Part shown: positions 2-29,057 of the stretch, piece by piece
How positions within the stretch are numbered: position 1 is the stretch's first letter
Layout of the letters: each line of letters opens with the position of its first letter
Source of the DNA: Candidatus Iainarchaeum sp.
GTDB lineage: Archaea; Iainarchaeota; Iainarchaeia; Iainarchaeales; JAZDFD01
Assembly (NCBI GenBank): GCA_043808155.1
Contig: JAZDFD010000011.1
Location: 1-29,057, forward strand
DNA length: 29,057 nt
Direction of reading: 5' to 3'
Program-made: the position numbers and the translations under genes
Notes under the pieces: generated by a model
What the model saw: only the letters and a program-made list of their open reading frames with translations
Told to the model about the DNA's origin: nothing
Database searches by the model: none

Positions 2-919
2 ACATATCCTATGATTGGGAATTATGGTGTTCCAAGTAAGGAAAAAAAAGATGGAATGCTTAAAAATTTTGAATCTGATAAAATTCAGGTTGCGGGAGTG
101 GTTGTTCTGGAATATTCATACAATTACTCACACAGCTCTGCAGTTAGGAGTCTTGCAGACTGGTTAAAGGAAGAAAATATTCCTGCAATTACTGGAATTG
201 ATACAAGAGCACTTACACAGAAATTAAGGGATAAAGGTGTGATGCTTGGAAAACTGATTATTGGTGACACAGATTCTGAAAAAGTGAAATTAGAAAACCC
301 TAACAAAAGAAATTTAGTTGCAGAAGCAAGCTGTAAAAAAGTTACAGAATATAAAGCAGGGAAAAAGAGAATTGCAATGCTTGACTGCGGAACTAAGAAC
401 AATATTATAAGAAGTTTAATCAGAAGGGATGTGACTGTTCTGAAAGTCCCATGGGATTATGATTTACTCGGAAGCAGTGAAAAGTTTCACGGAATTATGA
501 TTTCAAACGGACCTGGGGACCCTAAAATGGCAGATAAAACAATTGAAACAGTTAAAGAAGCAATGGAAAAAGAAATTCCAATATTTGGAATCTGCATGGG
601 AAATCAGATTTTAGGATTAGCAGCAGGGGGAGACACTTACAAATTAAAGTTTGGGCATCGTTCACAGAACCAGCCATGTATTATGGAAGGAACTGAAAGA
701 TGTTATATTACTTCACAAAATCACGGTTATGCATTGAGTGTTGAAAAACTTCCAAAAGAATGGAAGCCGTGGTTTATAAATGCAAATGATGGAACTAATG
801 AAGGAATAATTCACAAAACAAAACCATTTATGAGCGTACAATTCCATCCTGAAGCAACACCCGGAGCAGTTGACACTGAGTTTTTGTTTGAGTTATTGCT
901 AAAGAAGGTGAAATTGTGA
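2..919 (+). CDS. carA: Carbamoyl-phosphate synthase small (glutaminase) subunit, 5'-truncated by the window edge
   Basis: Frame is open from position 2 (TYPMIGNYG). Motifs GIDTRALT, SNGPGDP, FGICMGNQ (catalytic Cys), SQNHGY and VQFHPE; directly upstream of carB. Confidence 0.97.
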   Translation, partial: TYPMIGNYGVPSKEKKDGMLKNFESDKIQVAGVVVLEYSYNYSHSSAVRSLADWLKEENIPAITGIDTRALTQKLRDKGVMLGKLIIGDTDSEKVKLENPNKRNLVAEASCKKVTEYKAGKKRIAMLDCGTKNNIIRSLIRRDVTVLKVPWDYDLLGSSEKFHGIMISNGPGDPKMADKTIETVKEAMEKEIPIFGICMGNQILGLAAGGDTYKLKFGHRSQNQPCIMEGTERCYITSQNHGYALSVEKLPKEWKPWFINANDGTNEGIIHKTKPFMSVQFHPEATPGAVDTEFLFELLLKKVKL

Positions 920-920
920 A

Positions 921-987
921 TTATTACCGTGGATTTGAACAAAGTGAAAATCCACACATAAGTCGGTACGCCCGACCGAAAGCGGGC
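921..987. repeat. Structured two-hairpin intergenic element, copy 1 (unknown ncRNA or REP/MITE-like element)
   Basis: TTATTACC-GTGGATTT(929-936)/AAATCCAC(948-955)-ACATAA-GTCGGTAC-GCCCG(970-974)/CGGGC(983-987); homologous to 18760-18818. Confidence 0.8.
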
Positions 988-998
988 AGGGTGAAACT

Positions 999-3900
999 TT
1001 GAAAATTAAAAAAGTTTTAATTCTTGGTTCAGGTGCATTAAAAATCGGACAGGCAGGAGAGTTTGATTACTCAGGAAGTCAGGCAATTAAAGCACTTAAA
1101 GAAGAAAAAATTGAAACTGTTTTGATAAATCCAAACATTGCAACAGTGCAGACAAGCAAGGATTTTGCAGATATTGTTTATTTCCTGCCGGTTGAGGATT
1201 ATTTTGTTGAAAAAGTTATTGAAAAAGAAAAACCAGATGCAATTCTTCTTTCATTCGGGGGACAAACAGCATTGAATTGTGGCGTGTCGCTGAATAAAAA
1301 GGGAATTTTTAAAAAGCACAATGTACAGGTTATCGGAACACCAGTTGAAACAATTGAAATTACTGAAGACAGAGAATTATTTAAGAAAGCACTTAATGAA
1401 ATTGATGTTAAAACTCCGAGAAGTTTTGCATGCAAAAATATGGAAGAAGCAAATAAAGCAGTAAAAGAAATTGAATTTCCTGTAATGATAAGAGGTGCTT
1501 ACTCTTTAGGTGGAAAAGGTTCCGGAGTTGCAAAAAACAAGAAAACATTCAAACACATTGCAGAAAAGGCTCTTGCTTCCAATCCGCAAATTTTGGTTGA
1601 AGAATACTTAGGAGGCTGGAAAGAAATTGAATACGAGGTTGTAAGAGATTCAAGAGATAACTGCATTACTGTCTGCAATATGGAAAACTTTGATCCAATG
1701 GGAATTCACACAGGAGAAAGCATTGTAATTGCACCAACCCAAACACTTACAAATGAAGAATATCACAATTTGCGGGAACTTTCAATCAGAGTAATAAGAC
1801 ATCTTGGAATTGTAGGGGAGTGCAACATACAGTATGCACTGGATCCGGAAACTTTTGATTACAGAGTTATTGAAGTTAATGCAAGGCTTTCAAGGAGTTC
1901 TGCACTTGCTTCAAAAGCAACGGGCTATCCGCTTGCTTATATTGCAGCAAAACTTGCACTAAACAAATCACTTGTCGAACTGAGGAATTCAGTAACTGAA
2001 AAAACTACTGCGTGTTTTGAGCCTGCTCTGGATTACTGTGTTATTAAAATGCCGAGATGGGATCTTGAAAAGTTTCCAAGAGTTGAATTTGAGATTGGCT
2101 CAGAAATGAAAAGTGTCGGAGAAGTAATGAGTATTGGACGAAACTTTGAGGAAACAATACAAAAAGCTGTAAGAATGCTCAACAATGTTAGGGGCTTGAG
2201 CAATAATATTTTTACATTCAAAAATCTTGAAAGAAATTTAAAGCAGCCAACTGACAGAAGATTATTTGCGATTATAAATGCACTTCATTCGGGAATGACA
2301 ATCGATAAGCTTTACAAACTTACAAAAGTTGATAAATGGTTTTTATATAAACTGAAAAATATTGTGGAAATGGAAAAACATATTAAAAAGAAAGGAAAAT
2401 TATCAGAAATTTCAAAAGAGGAGTTATTAGAGATTAAAAAACTGGGATTTTCTGATAAGCAAATAGGTGAATTTGTTTCTGCAAATGAAAATGAAGTCAG
2501 AACTGCAAGAAAAAAAATGAATGTTATTCCTTATGTAAAACAGATTGATACTTTAGCAGCAGAATATCCCGCAACAACAAATTATCTTTATTTGACTTAT
2601 CATGCAGATAAACACGATATTGATTTTAATACACGGGATGTTGCAGTTTTAGGTTCAGGTGCATATGCAATAGGAACTTCAGTTGAGTTTGGCTGGTGCT
2701 GTGTTAATGCAATCCAAAGTCTGAAAAAGCAGGGATATAAAACAATAATGATTAATTACAATCCTGAAACAGTTTCAACTGATTATGATATTTGTGATAA
2801 ACTTTATTTTGAGGAACTCACATTGGAAAGAGTTCTTGATATTTTCGATAATGAAAACCCAAACGGAGTTATTGTTTCAATGGGCGGGCAGATACCAAAT
2901 ACTTTGGCAATGAAATTAAAAGAAAATAATGTTCAGGTTCTGGGAACTAAACCCGAGAACATTGACAGAGCAGAGGACAGACATAAATTCTCGAGTTTGT
3001 GCGATACTCTTGAAATTGACCAGCCGGAATGGAAAGAATTAACATCACTGGAAGATGCAATAAAATTTTCAAAAAGAATTGGTTATCCTGTTTTGATAAG
3101 ACCGTCTTATGTTTTGAGCGGTGCAGCAATGACTGTTGCTTTTAATGAAAAAGAACTTGAAAAATATCTGGAAAGAGCAACAGATCTTACTGAAAGCTCA
3201 GTTGTGATTTCTAAATTCATAGAAAATGCAAAAGAAATTGAAATTGATGCTGTTGCATGCAAAGGAGAGATAGTTGCATATGCAATTACAGATCATGTTG
3301 AAAACGCAGGTGTGCATTCCGGAGATGCAACAATGATTCTTCCGGCACAGAGAATTTATTTAGAAACATTCAGAGGAGTGAGAAAAATTGCAAGGGAACT
3401 TGCGTGTGAATTGCAGATTACAGGGCCATTTAATATTCAGTTTATTGCAAAAAGCAACAAACTAAAAGTAATTGAATGCAATTTACGCGCTTCGAGATCT
3501 TTCCCTTTTGTTTCTAAAGTTTATGGTGTTAATTTCATTGATTTAGCAACAAAAGCAATTATGACCGGAAATGTGAAAAAATTAGACAACTCAATTTTTG
3601 AACTTGATTATGTGGGGGTTAAAGCTCCCCAATTCTCATTCTCAAGACTTGGAAAAGCAGACCCGATTCTCTCTGTTGAGATGAGTTCAACAGGGGAAGT
3701 AGCATGCTTTGGAGATGACACTGAAGAAGCGTTCCTGAAATCAATTCTTGCAACAGAATTTAAAATTCCAAAAAAAGCAGTTCTTGTAAGCATTAACGGA
3801 GACGCGGGAAAAGTTGAGCTTGAACCATATGTCAGGAAACTCAAAGATGCGGGTTTCAAAGTTTATGCAACTGAAGGCACATCTAAGTTCTACAAAAAGA

Positions 3901-4184
3901 ATGGTCTGCAGAATACATTAGTCTATAAAATCCACGAGAAGAAAGAACCTAACATCAAAACATACCTGAAAGAAGGGAAGATTGACCTTGTGATAAATAT
4001 TCCAAAGGAATTCAATCAGCTGGAATTTGATGACACTTATGAATTGAGAAGGTTTGCAGTTGATTTGTATGTTCCTCTGCTTACAAATATTCAGCTTGCT
4101 CAGCTTTTTATTAATTCAATAATGAATAAGAAATTAGAGGATTTGAAAATCAAATCCTGGACAGAGTATGTTGATCTTCAGTAA
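999..4184 (+). CDS. carB: Carbamoyl-phosphate synthase large subunit
   Basis: 1061 aa; GSGALKIGQAGEFDYSGSQA, two ATP-grasp halves (GIHTGES / GVHSGDA, EVNARLSRSS / ECNLRASRS) and a C-terminal MGS-like domain. TTG start after a GGGTGA RBS. Confidence 0.98.
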   Translation: MKIKKVLILGSGALKIGQAGEFDYSGSQAIKALKEEKIETVLINPNIATVQTSKDFADIVYFLPVEDYFVEKVIEKEKPDAILLSFGGQTALNCGVSLNKKGIFKKHNVQVIGTPVETIEITEDRELFKKALNEIDVKTPRSFACKNMEEANKAVKEIEFPVMIRGAYSLGGKGSGVAKNKKTFKHIAEKALASNPQILVEEYLGGWKEIEYEVVRDSRDNCITVCNMENFDPMGIHTGESIVIAPTQTLTNEEYHNLRELSIRVIRHLGIVGECNIQYALDPETFDYRVIEVNARLSRSSALASKATGYPLAYIAAKLALNKSLVELRNSVTEKTTACFEPALDYCVIKMPRWDLEKFPRVEFEIGSEMKSVGEVMSIGRNFEETIQKAVRMLNNVRGLSNNIFTFKNLERNLKQPTDRRLFAIINALHSGMTIDKLYKLTKVDKWFLYKLKNIVEMEKHIKKKGKLSEISKEELLEIKKLGFSDKQIGEFVSANENEVRTARKKMNVIPYVKQIDTLAAEYPATTNYLYLTYHADKHDIDFNTRDVAVLGSGAYAIGTSVEFGWCCVNAIQSLKKQGYKTIMINYNPETVSTDYDICDKLYFEELTLERVLDIFDNENPNGVIVSMGGQIPNTLAMKLKENNVQVLGTKPENIDRAEDRHKFSSLCDTLEIDQPEWKELTSLEDAIKFSKRIGYPVLIRPSYVLSGAAMTVAFNEKELEKYLERATDLTESSVVISKFIENAKEIEIDAVACKGEIVAYAITDHVENAGVHSGDATMILPAQRIYLETFRGVRKIARELACELQITGPFNIQFIAKSNKLKVIECNLRASRSFPFVSKVYGVNFIDLATKAIMTGNVKKLDNSIFELDYVGVKAPQFSFSRLGKADPILSVEMSSTGEVACFGDDTEEAFLKSILATEFKIPKKAVLVSINGDAGKVELEPYVRKLKDAGFKVYATEGTSKFYKKNGLQNTLVYKIHEKKEPNIKTYLKEGKIDLVINIPKEFNQLEFDDTYELRRFAVDLYVPLLTNIQLAQLFINSIMNKKLEDLKIKSWTEYVDLQ

Positions 4185-6746: not shown

Positions 6747-6840
6747 AAATCAACTTTTTAATTTTCAAAAATCACTTTTTAATTCTCAAAAATCATTTTT
6801 TTAAAATTCATTTTTTCTAAATCACTTTTTAATTCTCAAA
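6747..6840. repeat. Direct repeats of the nadC 3' end (22 nt, two perfect copies and one degenerate copy)
   Basis: aaatcactttttaattctcaaa at 6769-6790 and 6819-6840 (the latter spans the nadC stop); aaatcaactttttaattttcaaa at 6747-6769. Confidence 0.85.
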
Positions 6841-12686: not shown

Positions 12687-12822
12687 CCTTTTTAAGAGAA
12701 AAAAGGCCTTTTTAGGGCTTCCTTTTGAGTTAAAATCTGAAAAACAGGATATTTGTGAGTTCAGGGGAAATGCGCTTATGAAAGCTTTAAAATAAACAAT
12801 TCAGGATTTAATTAATAGTAAT

Positions 12823-17144: not shown

Positions 17145-17220
17145 GTTCTAGGCTTTTTTAAAAAATCCAAAGCTTTTTAATTGTTGCACTGCAGATAATT
17201 ATTCTGAAATAAGTGATATT

Positions 17221-17670: not shown

Positions 17671-17707
17671 GAAACATTTATAAAGGTGGCGTGAGGCTAT
17701 TTATATA
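17671..17707 (+). promoter_or_regulatory. Candidate tfb promoter with two TATA-like boxes
   Basis: GAAACA-TTTATAAA (17671-17684) and a second TTTATATA (17700-17707). Confidence 0.5.
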
Positions 17708-17802
17708 TCTTACCACAACACATCTAATTTCTTTTATTTGGGGAAAGGGAATGAAATTTTTTGTGTGACTGGATTATACTAATTTATGTTGGAGGCGATG
17801 AA

Positions 17803-18711
17803 ATGAGCGAAACAAAATGCCCCGAATGCGGAAGTAAAAATGTAAGAAGAGATACAGAGAAAGGTGAACTTGTTTGCCAAGCATGCGGCATGGTTATAAG
17901 TGAGGACGATGTTGATTTAGGCAAAGAATGGAGAAGCTTTGATTCTGATCAGTTTGAAACACGAGCAAGAACTGGAAGCCCAATGAAATACGTGAAATTG
18001 AATAAAGGGCTTGTAACAATGATTGACAGACGCGGTACTGATTTAAGAGGAAACAAACTGTCAAGCAAAAGCAGAGCTCAGATGTATAGACTTATTAAAT
18101 GGCACAAACGTGCTTCAATTAGCAGCTCAATGCAAAGAAATCTTTCAATTGCATTAACAGAAATGAGAAGAGTTGCATCATACCTTAACATACCGGAATC
18201 ATTAGTTGAAGCAGCAGCATTGCTTTACAGAAAAACTGTGAAGAAAGGATTAATTAGAGGAAGATTGATTGAAGCAGTTGTTGCAGCAGTTCTTTACACA
18301 GTCTGCAGAACATATCATGTTCCAAGAACCTTAAACGAGATGGCAGAAGCATCTGGTTTGACTAAAAAGGAAATTGGAAGAACATACAGATTCTTAGTTA
18401 GAGAATTGAAATTAGATGTCCCCTTAACAAACCCAATTCATTACATCCCAAGATTTGCATCTGAATTAAATCTTTCAGGTGAAGTTCAGGAAGAAGGAAG
18501 AAAGATTTTGGAAGAAGCAATTGAAAAAGGTTTGATTTCAGGAAGAGGGCCAACAGGTGTTGCAGCTGCAGCAGTATATATTGCAGGTCTTCTGAAGGGT
18601 GAAAGAAGAACCCAAAAAGAAGTTGCAAACGTTGCTGGTGTAACTGAAGTCACAATCCGAAACAGGTACAGAGAATTAAAGAAAAGACTTGACATTGAGG
18701 TTTCTGCTTAA
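17803..18711 (+). CDS. tfb: Transcription initiation factor IIB
   Basis: Zn ribbon CPECG...CQACG, B-reader EWRSF...RTG, two cyclin repeats ending GVTEVTIRNRY. ATG 17803 follows a GGAGG RBS. Confidence 0.98.
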   Translation: MSETKCPECGSKNVRRDTEKGELVCQACGMVISEDDVDLGKEWRSFDSDQFETRARTGSPMKYVKLNKGLVTMIDRRGTDLRGNKLSSKSRAQMYRLIKWHKRASISSSMQRNLSIALTEMRRVASYLNIPESLVEAAALLYRKTVKKGLIRGRLIEAVVAAVLYTVCRTYHVPRTLNEMAEASGLTKKEIGRTYRFLVRELKLDVPLTNPIHYIPRFASELNLSGEVQEEGRKILEEAIEKGLISGRGPTGVAAAAVYIAGLLKGERRTQKEVANVAGVTEVTIRNRYRELKKRLDIEVSA

Positions 18712-18738
18712 AGCAGAATCCCCCCTTATTCTTTTTTT
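18702..18738 (+). terminator. Hairpin over the tfb stop codon followed by a T-tract
   Basis: TTCTGCT-TAA-AGCAGAA, then CTTATTCTTTTTTT. Confidence 0.45.
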
Positions 18739-18759
18739 AATTATTTAATTCATTCTTAT

Positions 18760-18818
18760 TTATTACCGCGGGTTTGAAAAATCCGCACATAACTCGGACC
18801 AGCCGGACGAAACCGGCT
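18760..18818. repeat. Structured two-hairpin intergenic element, copy 2
   Basis: TTATTACC-GCGGGTTT(18768-18775)/AAATCCGC(18779-18786)-ACATAA-CTCGGACC-AGCCGG(18801-18806)/CCGGCT(18813-18818); homologous to 921-987. Confidence 0.8.
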
Positions 18819-18857
18819 TTAGAAAGCTATTTATTTCCTTCACAAGGATAATATATT

Positions 18858-19163
18858 ATGGACAGGGAAAATAGTATGGTTCAGGGCTTCATTAAGGATG
18901 CTAAAAGGAGTTGTATTCACTGCAGTGGCAGAAGAATGTTAAGAGACAAAACCGAAGAGCGAGAAAGAGCTTTCAGTGCAATAAAATCACTATACAACTA
19001 CTACTTGGATTTATTTGATTCGCTAAGAAGAGATGATGCACCAGCTTCAGAAATTGAAAAAGCAAGATTAAACAAAACTCTTTGTTTAGATACAATGGAT
19101 GAATGCAGAGCATGCAACAAAGAAGTCGACAAAATCAACAGATCAGTTGGAAAGTTACGTTAG
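18858..19163 (+). CDS. Small hypothetical protein with two CxxC motifs (possible Zn binding)
   Basis: 101 aa; CIHC and CRAC; ends 8 nt before rnhB. Confidence 0.7.
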   Translation: MDRENSMVQGFIKDAKRSCIHCSGRRMLRDKTEERERAFSAIKSLYNYYLDLFDSLRRDDAPASEIEKARLNKTLCLDTMDECRACNKEVDKINRSVGKLR

Positions 19164-21538: not shown

Positions 21539-23282
21539 TTAATCCTCAATTGTTGAAATATCACCGATTGGCATACCTAATTCTTTTGCTTTTAGAACTC
21601 TTCTCATTATCTTTCCTGATCTTGTTTTTGGGAGTGAGTCTACGAATTCAAGTTCACGGGGATATGCGTGTCCTGCGTAATTTGCTTTTACAAACTGCTG
21701 GATTTCTTTTTTGAGTTCTTCGCTAGGAGTATATCCTTTTGCAAGAACAACAAATGCTTTGATTATTGCGCCTCTTTCTGCATCTGGTTTTCCAATTACA
21801 CCCGCCTCAATTACTGCTTCGTGATCAATTAATGCAGATTCAACTTCAAAAGGACCTACACGTTCACCTGCAGTTTTGATTACATCGTCATCTCTGCCAA
21901 TAAACCAAAAGTAACCGTCTTCATCCATAAAAGCATTGTCACCGGAAACATACCAATCTCCAATGAAACATTTGTCATAGCGTTCTTGGTTTTTCCAGAT
22001 TCCGCGCATCATTGACGGCCATCCTTTTTTAATTGCTAAGTGGCCTTCAGTTTTTGCAGGAACTTCATTGCCTTTGTCATCAATAATTCCTGCAGTAACT
22101 CCGGGAATTGGTTTTCCCATTGAGCCCAATCTTACAGGCATTGATGAATAATTTACAATCATCATTGCACCTGTTTCAGTCTGCCACCAATTATCATGGA
22201 AAGTTAAACCAAACAATTCTTTGCCCCATCTGATTGCTTCAGGATTTAATGGTTCACCAACTGAAAGCATGTGTCTTAATGCAGGATACTTGAATTTCTT
22301 TACTAAGTCATCACCTGCTTTCATTAACATTCGGATTGCAGTTGGTGCAGTATACCATACTGAAACTTTTTTATCCTGAAGAATTTCATACCATTTTTCA
22401 GGATTGAATCTGCCGTCATGAACAATTGAAGTTGCACCAACTGACCAGATTCCTAAAATCCCATAAGCAATTCCCGTAACCCAGCCAGGGTCTGCTGTGC
22501 ACCAGTAAACATCTTCATCATGTAAATCAAGAACCCATTTTGCAGTCATATGCTCCTGAAGAATTGCTTTGTGCGCATGCATAATTCCTTTTGGTTTTCC
22601 TGTTGTGCCTGAAGTGTAAAGAATGAATGCAATGTCTTCTGCATCTGTTTTTTCAATTTCTAATTCATCAGAAGCAGAATTCATTTCGTCAATGTAATTT
22701 ATTTCTCCTTTGCTTGCATCAACACCTTTCCCGTCTACAATGATTATGTGTTTCAACGCAGGCAAATCAGCACGTACTTCATCAACACGGTCTTTCATTG
22801 ATGAGTGTGTTACTAAAACTGAAGTTTCTGAATTTCCTAATCTGTCAGAAAGTGCAGCTGATTTAAATGCCTGAAACAAAGTTCCTGCAATTGCACCAAT
22901 TTTCAAAGTACCCAAAAATGAAATATAGCATTCAGGTATTCGCGGCAGGAACATGAAAACTCTGTCCCCCTTTGCCACGCCTAATTTTTTTAAAACATTT
23001 CCAAATTTGTTTGTTTCTTTTGCAAGCTCTTCAAATGTGAAGGTTTTTTCCCCGTCTGTGTCTGAAATCCAGTGTAATGCTACTTTATTTTTTTTTATCT
23101 GTTTTTAAGTGCCTGTCAATTGCATTATATGCGGCATTTAATTTTCCATCCTCAAACCATTCAAGTTCGTTGTGAACAGAAGCCCAATCAAAATCAGCAT
23201 AAGTTTTATCATAATTTTTCAAATTAGGTTCCAATTTGTATTGTTTCTTTGTTTTTTCATGAATTTCAATTTTAGCAGCCAT
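21539..23282 (-). pseudogene. acs: Acetyl-CoA synthetase (AMP-forming) interrupted by one extra base in an A9 run (slippage site, recent mutation or sequencing error)
   Basis: ATG 23282 with an AGGTGA RBS gives ...NAAYNAIDRHLKTDKKK*. Removing one A from the run (T9 at 23088-23096 on +) reads DKKNKVALHWISD...KLGVAKGDRV into the 479-aa ORF with YTSGTTGKPKG, WCTADPGWVTG, WWQTETG and PKTRSGKIMRR; 580 aa when restored. Confidence 0.9.
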
Positions 23283-23419
23283 TAGTATCACCTTTTTTAA
23301 GAATATAAAAATTAGAGGCAATGAAATTATAAAAGTATTCGCAATAAATGGCTTCTTAAATTCCAAAACTTAGCCTTGGAAGAGGTAGTAATTTAAGGTT
23401 TTTTCATTTACTGAATAGC

Positions 23420-28988: not shown

Positions 28989-29057
28989 TTAGACAATGAG
29001 TCCCGCGGATTTTTTTATTAACTGCTTGTACGGGGAGAGGAGGGATAGAACTGAGGC

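Follow-up and report, generated by a model that had tools for sequence, protein, structure and literature searches.

A two-hairpin element repeated in two intergenic spacers of an archaeal genome fragment, with compensated changes in its stems

The window, by which we mean the whole stretch of 29,057 nt that was analysed, is AT-rich, with 34% GC overall and 29-39% in each kb, and a Pfam family was found for 23 of its 32 ORFs, the other nine being without any. Among the encoded proteins are TFB, S8e, a Hef-type helicase-nuclease, a form III-like RuBisCO large-chain homologue and KaiC-like ATPases, and by the TFB, S8e, Hef and form III-like RuBisCO genes the window is archaeal; TFB and RNase HII were confirmed also by NCBIfam. 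The genes carA (2-919) and carB (999-4184), between which an earlier note on this DNA had placed a structured element, are both confirmed by Pfam, and since the Pfam matches show so (that of carB begins at residue 3), the end of carA and the start of carB are natural. Elsewhere in the window an acetyl-CoA synthetase gene on the minus strand is split at 22979-23100, between ORFs 21539-22978 and 23085-23366, where the N-terminal piece (ACAS_N) and the AMP-binding piece are read in two frames whose overlap falls on an A-run; this may be a frameshift, due to slippage, to pseudogenisation or to an error of assembly. Three direct repeats, each of about 34 nt, overlapping and 74-85% alike, occupy 6757-6840, in the spacer that has the lowest GC of all (0.13) and lies upstream of a minus-strand nucleotidyltransferase gene. 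After the last ORF follows a GC-richer stretch (28997-29057), which opens with GAGTCCCGCGGATTTTTTT, short and hairpin-like, and runs off the end of the window; it gave no match to Rfam, the best E being 0.84.

The element itself is GC-rich, 61-69 nt long and built of two small hairpins, and it occurs as two copies on the plus strand of the window, at 919-987 and 18758-18818, 17.8 kb apart. Both copies were found where the earlier note had described them, and every statement that it made about their sequence proved correct. The order of the parts is a TTATTACC box, an 8-bp hairpin, ACATAA-N-TCGG, three bases and a 6-bp hairpin with an xCGAAA loop. Copy 1 has the TTATTACC box at 921-928, hairpin 1 at 929-955 (stem 929-936/948-955, GTGGATTT/AAATCCAC, with an 11-nt loop at 937-947), the linker at 956-969 (invariant ACATAA at 956-961 and TCGG at 963-966) and hairpin 2 at 970-987 (stem 970-975/982-987 with five standard pairs and one A.G, loop CCGAAA at 976-981), all on the plus strand. 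On the same strand copy 2 has the same box at 18760-18767, hairpin 1 at 18768-18786 (8-bp stem 18768-18775/18779-18786, GCGGGTTT/AAATCCGC, with one G.T and the 3-nt loop GAA), the linker at 18787-18800 (ACATAA at 18787-18792 and TCGG at 18794-18797) and hairpin 2 at 18801-18818 (6-bp stem 18801-18806/18813-18818, loop ACGAAA). Hairpin 1 thus measures 19-27 nt and hairpin 2 18 nt. The length of loop 1 does vary as had been reported, 11 nt in copy 1 against 3 nt in copy 2. Bases capable of the tandem G.A pairs that had been suggested for it are there in copy 1, but copy 2 has no such tip, and the tip is therefore not a feature of the family. A stretch of 10-11 bases in each copy (923-933 in copy 1, 18762-18772 in copy 2) is complementary to what we take to be the universally conserved 530 loop of 16S rRNA (the 515F/518R primer site), with one G.U in copy 1; by a rough estimate the chance of so short a match is of the order of 0.1.

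Both copies are intergenic. Copy 1 lies between carA and carB, with its first base 2 nt past the carA stop (917-919), and it fills the spacer almost exactly, as 67 of the 79 nt are element (921-987) and the rest is 1 nt after the stop and the stretch from the ribosome-binding site to the start codon. A Shine-Dalgarno-like AGGGTGA (988-994, plus strand) begins 1 nt past copy 1, and its GGTGA recurs before many starts in the window; carB starts with TTG at 999 on the plus strand. Without the element this spacer would be about 12 nt, as at the other operon junctions of the window (4-12 nt), and therefore copy 1 looks, by its sequence surroundings, like an insertion into a tight operon junction; any carAB transcript must include it. 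No promoter-like box was seen in the 79-nt spacer.

Copy 2 lies between the TFB gene and ORF 18858-19163, and begins 49 nt after the TFB stop (18709-18711), beyond a run of seven T (18732-18738) that is presumably an archaeal terminator. Downstream of it, ahead of the ORF, comes a putative promoter-like box on the plus strand (18822-18838), consisting of GAAAGC and a T/A-rich run, and the pattern of AAAGC followed by a T/A-rich run is found also upstream of the S8e, Hef and TFB genes. If the predicted terminator and promoter work as usual in archaea, copy 2 would be outside both neighbouring transcripts, and since it is placed between the T7 run and the promoter-like box it is no obvious 5' leader or 3' UTR. 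Such a position fits an insertion that has been tolerated, and argues against a leader or riboswitch. The promoter-like box, in the form of AAAGC or GAGGC and then a T/A-rich run, recurs at 12780-12822, 17175-17220, 17690-17760 and 18822-18838, and these four sites precede the Hef, S8e, TFB and ORF 18858 genes. ORF 18858-19163 encodes 101 aa directly upstream of RNase HII and has two CxxC pairs, one at residues 19-22 and one at 83-86; neither Pfam nor NCBIfam gave a family for it.

The two spacers that bear the copies have the highest GC of the 26 in the window (0.47 and 0.36, the others 0.13-0.34), and when islands of at least 60% GC in 40 nt are counted there are nine, seven inside ORFs and two intergenic, the latter being the copies. 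In archaea of AT-rich genome, GC-rich intergenic islands are the classic mark by which structured RNA genes are told, and genes for small guide RNAs are known from very narrow spacers in archaea. The copies might accordingly be paralogous genes for small trans-acting non-coding RNAs of about 60-70 nt, of which copy 2 would have its own promoter and copy 1 would be cut from the carAB transcript, and a T/A-rich stretch 15-30 nt upstream of copy 2 would suit this. The region upstream of copy 2 is however without the AAAGC-type box seen at four other promoters of the window, and what lies upstream of copy 1 is only carA coding sequence with nothing promoter-like. No C/D box, H/ACA pocket or K-turn is common to both copies, there is no Rfam match, and the variable parts are the stems and not a guide-like single strand. 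We regard such RNA genes as improbable.

The alignment of the copies is gap-free except for an 8-nt indel in loop 1, and 14 of the 61 aligned columns differ (23% divergence), nine at the 28 stem positions and five at the 33 unpaired ones. The unpaired boxes had been described as unchanged, and the four of them (TTATTACC, ACATAA, TCGG and CGAAA) are indeed identical at 23 of 23 positions. Standard pairing is kept in 27 of the 28 stem cells of a 14-pair structure, with three double compensatory changes and one G.U. The changes reported for stem 1 were found again, one of them double (U-A to C-G) and the other a wobble (A-U to G-U). For stem 2 the reported change from C-G to G-C stands, but the register in which it had been read needs two indels and gives only that single change; the gap-free register has six pairs around a 6-nt loop (CCGAAA / ACGAAA) and shows two double changes (G-C to A-T and C-G to G-C), plus a change from A.G to G-C. 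RNAalifold, unaided, recovered both helices with 13 pairs, three of them with both sides changed. As a control the 3' partners were moved by 1-3 columns, and these slid registers gave 14-50% pairing and no double change.

A column shuffle reached the observed covariation in 55 of 500 cases and is nearly powerless with two rows, and therefore unconstrained substitution was simulated, by placing 14 random substitutions on copy 1 with uniform rates and no phylogeny. At least three canonical double changes appeared in 0.15% of the runs (P = 0.0015), and all 13 canonical pairs of copy 1 were kept while at least five pairs were touched in 0.025% (P = 0.00025). When the changed columns were kept in place and only the new bases were drawn at random, 0.98% of the runs had nothing but canonical pairs among the 14 (P = 0.0098). 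The view of the earlier note that the structure is under selection is well in line with the pairing in 27 of 28 cells, the three double changes, their absence in slid registers and the null P of 0.00025-0.0015; on two copies and a simple substitution null, the stem pairing looks selected. The copies could still be a fossil, that is a duplicated or once-mobile sequence that has no present function and whose compensated changes are luck, and the shuffle, indecisive at n = 2, leaves room for it. The simulations (P = 0.00025-0.0098), the boxes that are intact after 23% divergence and the lack of double changes in the slid controls all go against it, and we find it quite improbable. Two other accounts of the similarity were rejected. 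One is that the copies are coding: the indel of 8 nt would break the reading frame, no start codon is found in the frames that are open over the copies, and the changes are mostly non-synonymous. The other is a dimeric DNA-binding site, as the spacing of the half-sites differs by 8 bp between the copies.

When RNA folding was compared with shuffles, the plus strand gave z = -2.72 and -2.21 for the two copies and the minus strand -1.34 and -1.85, whereas folded as DNA the strands are about equal (z = -2.38 and -2.49 on the plus strand, -2.96 and -1.67 on the minus strand). The single wobble is a G.T on the plus strand and would be an A.C on the minus strand, and the orientation matches that of the flanking genes in two of two copies. 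The sense strand is thus modestly favoured by RNA folding, wobble and co-orientation, while RNA and single-stranded DNA are not separable. In a context of 161-169 nt the pairs of stem 1 have probabilities of 0.92-0.95 for copy 1 and 0.65-1.0 for copy 2, so that this stem is predicted to be stable in each, and those of stem 2 have 0.85-1.0 for copy 2 and 0.22 for copy 1. The low value in copy 1 goes with a rival hairpin, GUCGG/CCGAC at 962-966/972-976, which has a probability of 0.61-0.63 against 0.22 for stem 2.

This competition is switch-like, and both copies have a gene downstream on the plus strand, so that a riboswitch or a leader responsive to a ligand or protein might be imagined for carB and for ORF 18858 with RNase HII. 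The rival hairpin is predicted in copy 1 only and has a probability of 0.0 in copy 2; it is therefore not common to both copies, and a switch hairpin as a family feature was rejected. Copy 2 comes before the promoter-like box of the gene that follows it, the genes after the two copies have unrelated functions, the carB Shine-Dalgarno is outside the element, and no riboswitch family matched at E<=10. The earlier note had thought a pathway riboswitch the less likely because the neighbouring genes are unrelated; the position of copy 2 upstream of the next promoter-like box adds to this, and we hold a riboswitch or leader to be very unlikely indeed.

The main rival of the reading that we favour below is a cis-acting RNA module selected by the host, a protein-binding, processing or stability signal in mRNAs or at their 3' ends, which would be kept by purifying selection at each locus and for which any mobility would be ancient or irrelevant. 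The identity of the boxes next to stems that changed at 9 of 28 positions and yet are paired would be expected from it, as would the sense orientation at both sites and a wobble that reads as G.U in the sense direction. If carA and carB form one operon, transcription must pass through copy 1; the spacer has no promoter-like box and the Shine-Dalgarno follows directly. The GAAA-containing loop of copy 1 is closed by a C-G. Against this, transcription of copy 2, after the T7 run and before the promoter-like box, is doubtful, the neighbouring genes have no common pathway, the probability predicted in context for stem 2 of copy 1 is just 0.22, and no candidate binding protein is known. Our judgement is that a module of this kind is on the unlikely side, while still deserving to be taken seriously.

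Relatives of the element were sought in several ways. A 19-nt central pattern has two exact matches in the window and one match with three mismatches inside the RNase HII gene (expected 0.04), and 0 of 100 shuffles gave three matches. A covariance model built from both copies scores the copies themselves with 98.0 and 85.4 bits. The earlier note had looked to a covariance search for further copies, and with filters off and E<=10 this model gave 23 matches in the 29-kb window, two of which are the copies; there is no third copy or half-copy among them, the other 21 having at most 12.6 bits and no stems, with an AT-rich stretch lacking stem 1 as the best. A loose motif (TTATTACC with at most one mismatch, then ACATAA with at most one mismatch, within 60 nt) matched nine times in the window, and hairpins were found at the two known sites only. 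That no known family had been recognised agrees with Rfam 15, which at gathering thresholds has no match in the whole window; permissive scans at both copies gave only noise (E 1.5-9.1, the best values being 3.5 and 1.5, at 10-14.5 bits) and no family common to both. ARAGORN found no tRNA or tmRNA gene in the window.

In 185,579 species genomes, a collection evidently without the source genome, we scanned for a pattern with the boxes and a closing G-C pair fixed and with seven of eight stem 1 pairs and all of hairpin 2 free. Five loci were found, all in bacterial MAGs. Four of them (L001-L004) match only the fixed letters of the pattern and form no hairpin, and the fifth (L005) scores 18.6 bits with a 5-bp hairpin, is without hairpin 2, and lies in the last codons, at the 3' end, of an RHS-like ORF. 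We judge that all five look like chance, the fifth only probably so, the odds for five matches being roughly 0.02-0.1 by a rough estimate. The contig of the fifth locus has at 500-4043 three tandem RHS-type ORFs that resemble C-terminal toxins, whose N-terminal parts are almost the same and whose tails differ, an arrangement known from polymorphic toxin cassettes, and these are unrelated to the element. Searches with copy 1 by blastn met one phage record (23 nt, E = 8) and six plasmid records (22-29 nt, E = 7), neither of them meaningful. A literature search met no description of the element, and was too limited to show that it is unpublished.

The element is thus a real, two-copy and structure-constrained one, its family is unassigned, and the case for it rests on n = 2. 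As to what it is, we lean, tentatively and at somewhat less than even probability, towards a small dispersed REP/MITE-like repeat that is read as a folded single sense strand. A dispersed structured element had been proposed before, and its basis stands in so far as there is a repeat, with helices, at unrelated sites; the nuclease side of the proposal has no counterpart in the window, as no HUH, Y1 transposase, TnpA, TnpB, RAYT or integrase family was found by Pfam in any of the 32 window ORFs. For the small ribozyme that had also been named, nothing speaks. The occurrence in two unrelated contexts 17.8 kb apart, the way in which copy 1 fills a junction where other operon spacers have 4-12 nt, and the place of copy 2 between the T7 run and the promoter-like box all suit a dispersed repeat, and so do the compensated differences with the helices recovered by RNAalifold (null P 0.0015, 0.00025 and 0.0098) and the better folding of the plus strand as RNA, with its G.T wobble and co-orientation. 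Weighing on the other side, two copies are known, with no third or half-copy in 29 kb, the genome scan gave only the five chance matches in bacterial MAGs, no transposase, integrase or HUH family is encoded, no target-site duplication was seen, and the two strands fold about equally well as DNA. A divergence of 23% with perfect boxes fits purifying selection at each locus, for a host function, equally well.

We hypothesize that two independent GC-rich hairpins between short invariant single-stranded boxes would form one module, and that this module may have reached intergenic spacers unrelated to one another, by insertion or by copying, each time pointing the same way as the genes beside it. 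The plus, or sense, strand would be read as a folded single strand, and a trans-acting protein would recognise the shapes of the hairpins together with the invariant boxes (TTATTACC, ACATAA, TCGG and CGAAA); in this proposal stems would change only when compensated, and boxes never, because the protein would recognise shapes and boxes. Within the carA-carB transcript the element could act as an intercistronic stem-loop block, an exonuclease barrier or a processing point, with the carB ribosome-binding site left outside the structure. REPs, REPINs and MITEs are well studied in bacteria, where they shape the expression of operons and reveal domesticated transposases, and to our knowledge dispersed structured repeats are barely charted in the small genomes of uncultivated archaea. 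An element of this kind would be a handle for the search for a partner protein, and would help to show how an RNA structure inserted into a closely packed archaeal operon like carAB is tolerated there or put to use. With two copies it is a lead and not a result.

Some known systems can be set aside quickly. A CRISPR array was rejected, as two copies 17.8 kb apart make no array, and the weak matches to CRISPR direct repeats belong to different families, on the minus strand, with E of 3.5 and 8.2. The att-site repeats of an integrated element were rejected as well, the copies being 84% identical, with no tRNA and with 17.8 kb of housekeeping genes between them. Closer is the archaeal H/ACA guide RNA, with which the element shares a hairpin followed by a single-stranded ACA (956-958 and 18787-18789) and, in the loop of copy 1, the bases for tandem G.A pairs. 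Archaeal H/ACA RNAs have a guide pocket within the hairpin, together with a K-turn or K-loop, and then the ACA. This reading was rejected, since stem 1 is an uninterrupted 8-bp helix without a pocket and the 3-nt loop of copy 2 leaves no shared K-loop, and Rfam H/ACA families gave no match at E<=10 around the copies.

The 5' box of the element contains TTAC, which we take to be the target of IS608. Like the ends of IS200/IS605 and the PATE-type MITEs, the element has no terminal inverted repeats and no target duplication, and it has small hairpins near both ends, for which the parts of the survey used here quote 20-25 nt in IS200/IS605 and 21-65 nt in REPs (PMC6006769), sizes that the hairpins of 18-27 nt match. 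In IS200/IS605 the DNA is recognised single-stranded, by way of a guide tetranucleotide that precedes the foot of the hairpin on the 5' side, according to the same passages (PMC6006769). Unlike IS200/IS605, for which a cleavage tetranucleotide is expected at the right end, the element shows no conservation on the 3' side of hairpin 2, and the copies are alike only as far as the foot of that hairpin (copy 1 has AGGGTGAA, copy 2 TTAGAAAG). It is also only 61-69 nt long, and no TnpA/TnpB or full-length parent IS is present in the window.

The other kind that the element resembles most, beside miniature derivatives of IS200/IS605, is that of REPs and RAYTs. The differences are that the element consists of two different tandem hairpins, not of one REP or an inverted pair of REPs, that high copy number is a feature of REPs and the element has two copies in the 29-kb window, and that no RAYT (TnpA-REP, HUH-Y1) gene is found among the 32 window ORFs of what is an archaeal host. 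The element also lacks the GTAG (GT[AG]G) or CGTC tetranucleotide that, in the portions of the sources drawn on, precedes the hairpin foot on the 5' side; in either copy hairpin 1 is preceded by TACC, and hairpin 2 is preceded by GTAC in the first copy and by GACC in the second. The likenesses, as far as these portions describe REPs, are a short GC-rich imperfect palindrome in intergenic or intercistronic spacers, of 20-40 bp and up to about 65 nt (PMC3733652; PMC6006769), a size into which hairpins of 19-27 and 18 nt fall, a conserved single-stranded stretch 5' of the hairpin foot, and hairpins that are kept as the sequence drifts. REPs are there said to make mRNAs more stable and to bring about termination (PMC6006769). 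The sole TnpA-Y1 subclass observed in Archaea, within the part of the survey that we cite, is of the IS200 type and is not associated with REPs (PMC6006769), and a true REP-like system in this host would therefore, by that account, be new. It is rather unlikely, although not far-fetched, that the element represents an undescribed family. This may be an archaeal counterpart of REPs and REPINs, a two-hairpin single-strand substrate with a nuclease or transposase of its own, REP-associated transposases not being reported in Archaea in those passages, or it may be a new class of structured RNA, in which the four invariant boxes would make up a core for catalysis or protein binding, and two helices that covary freely would hold this core in place.
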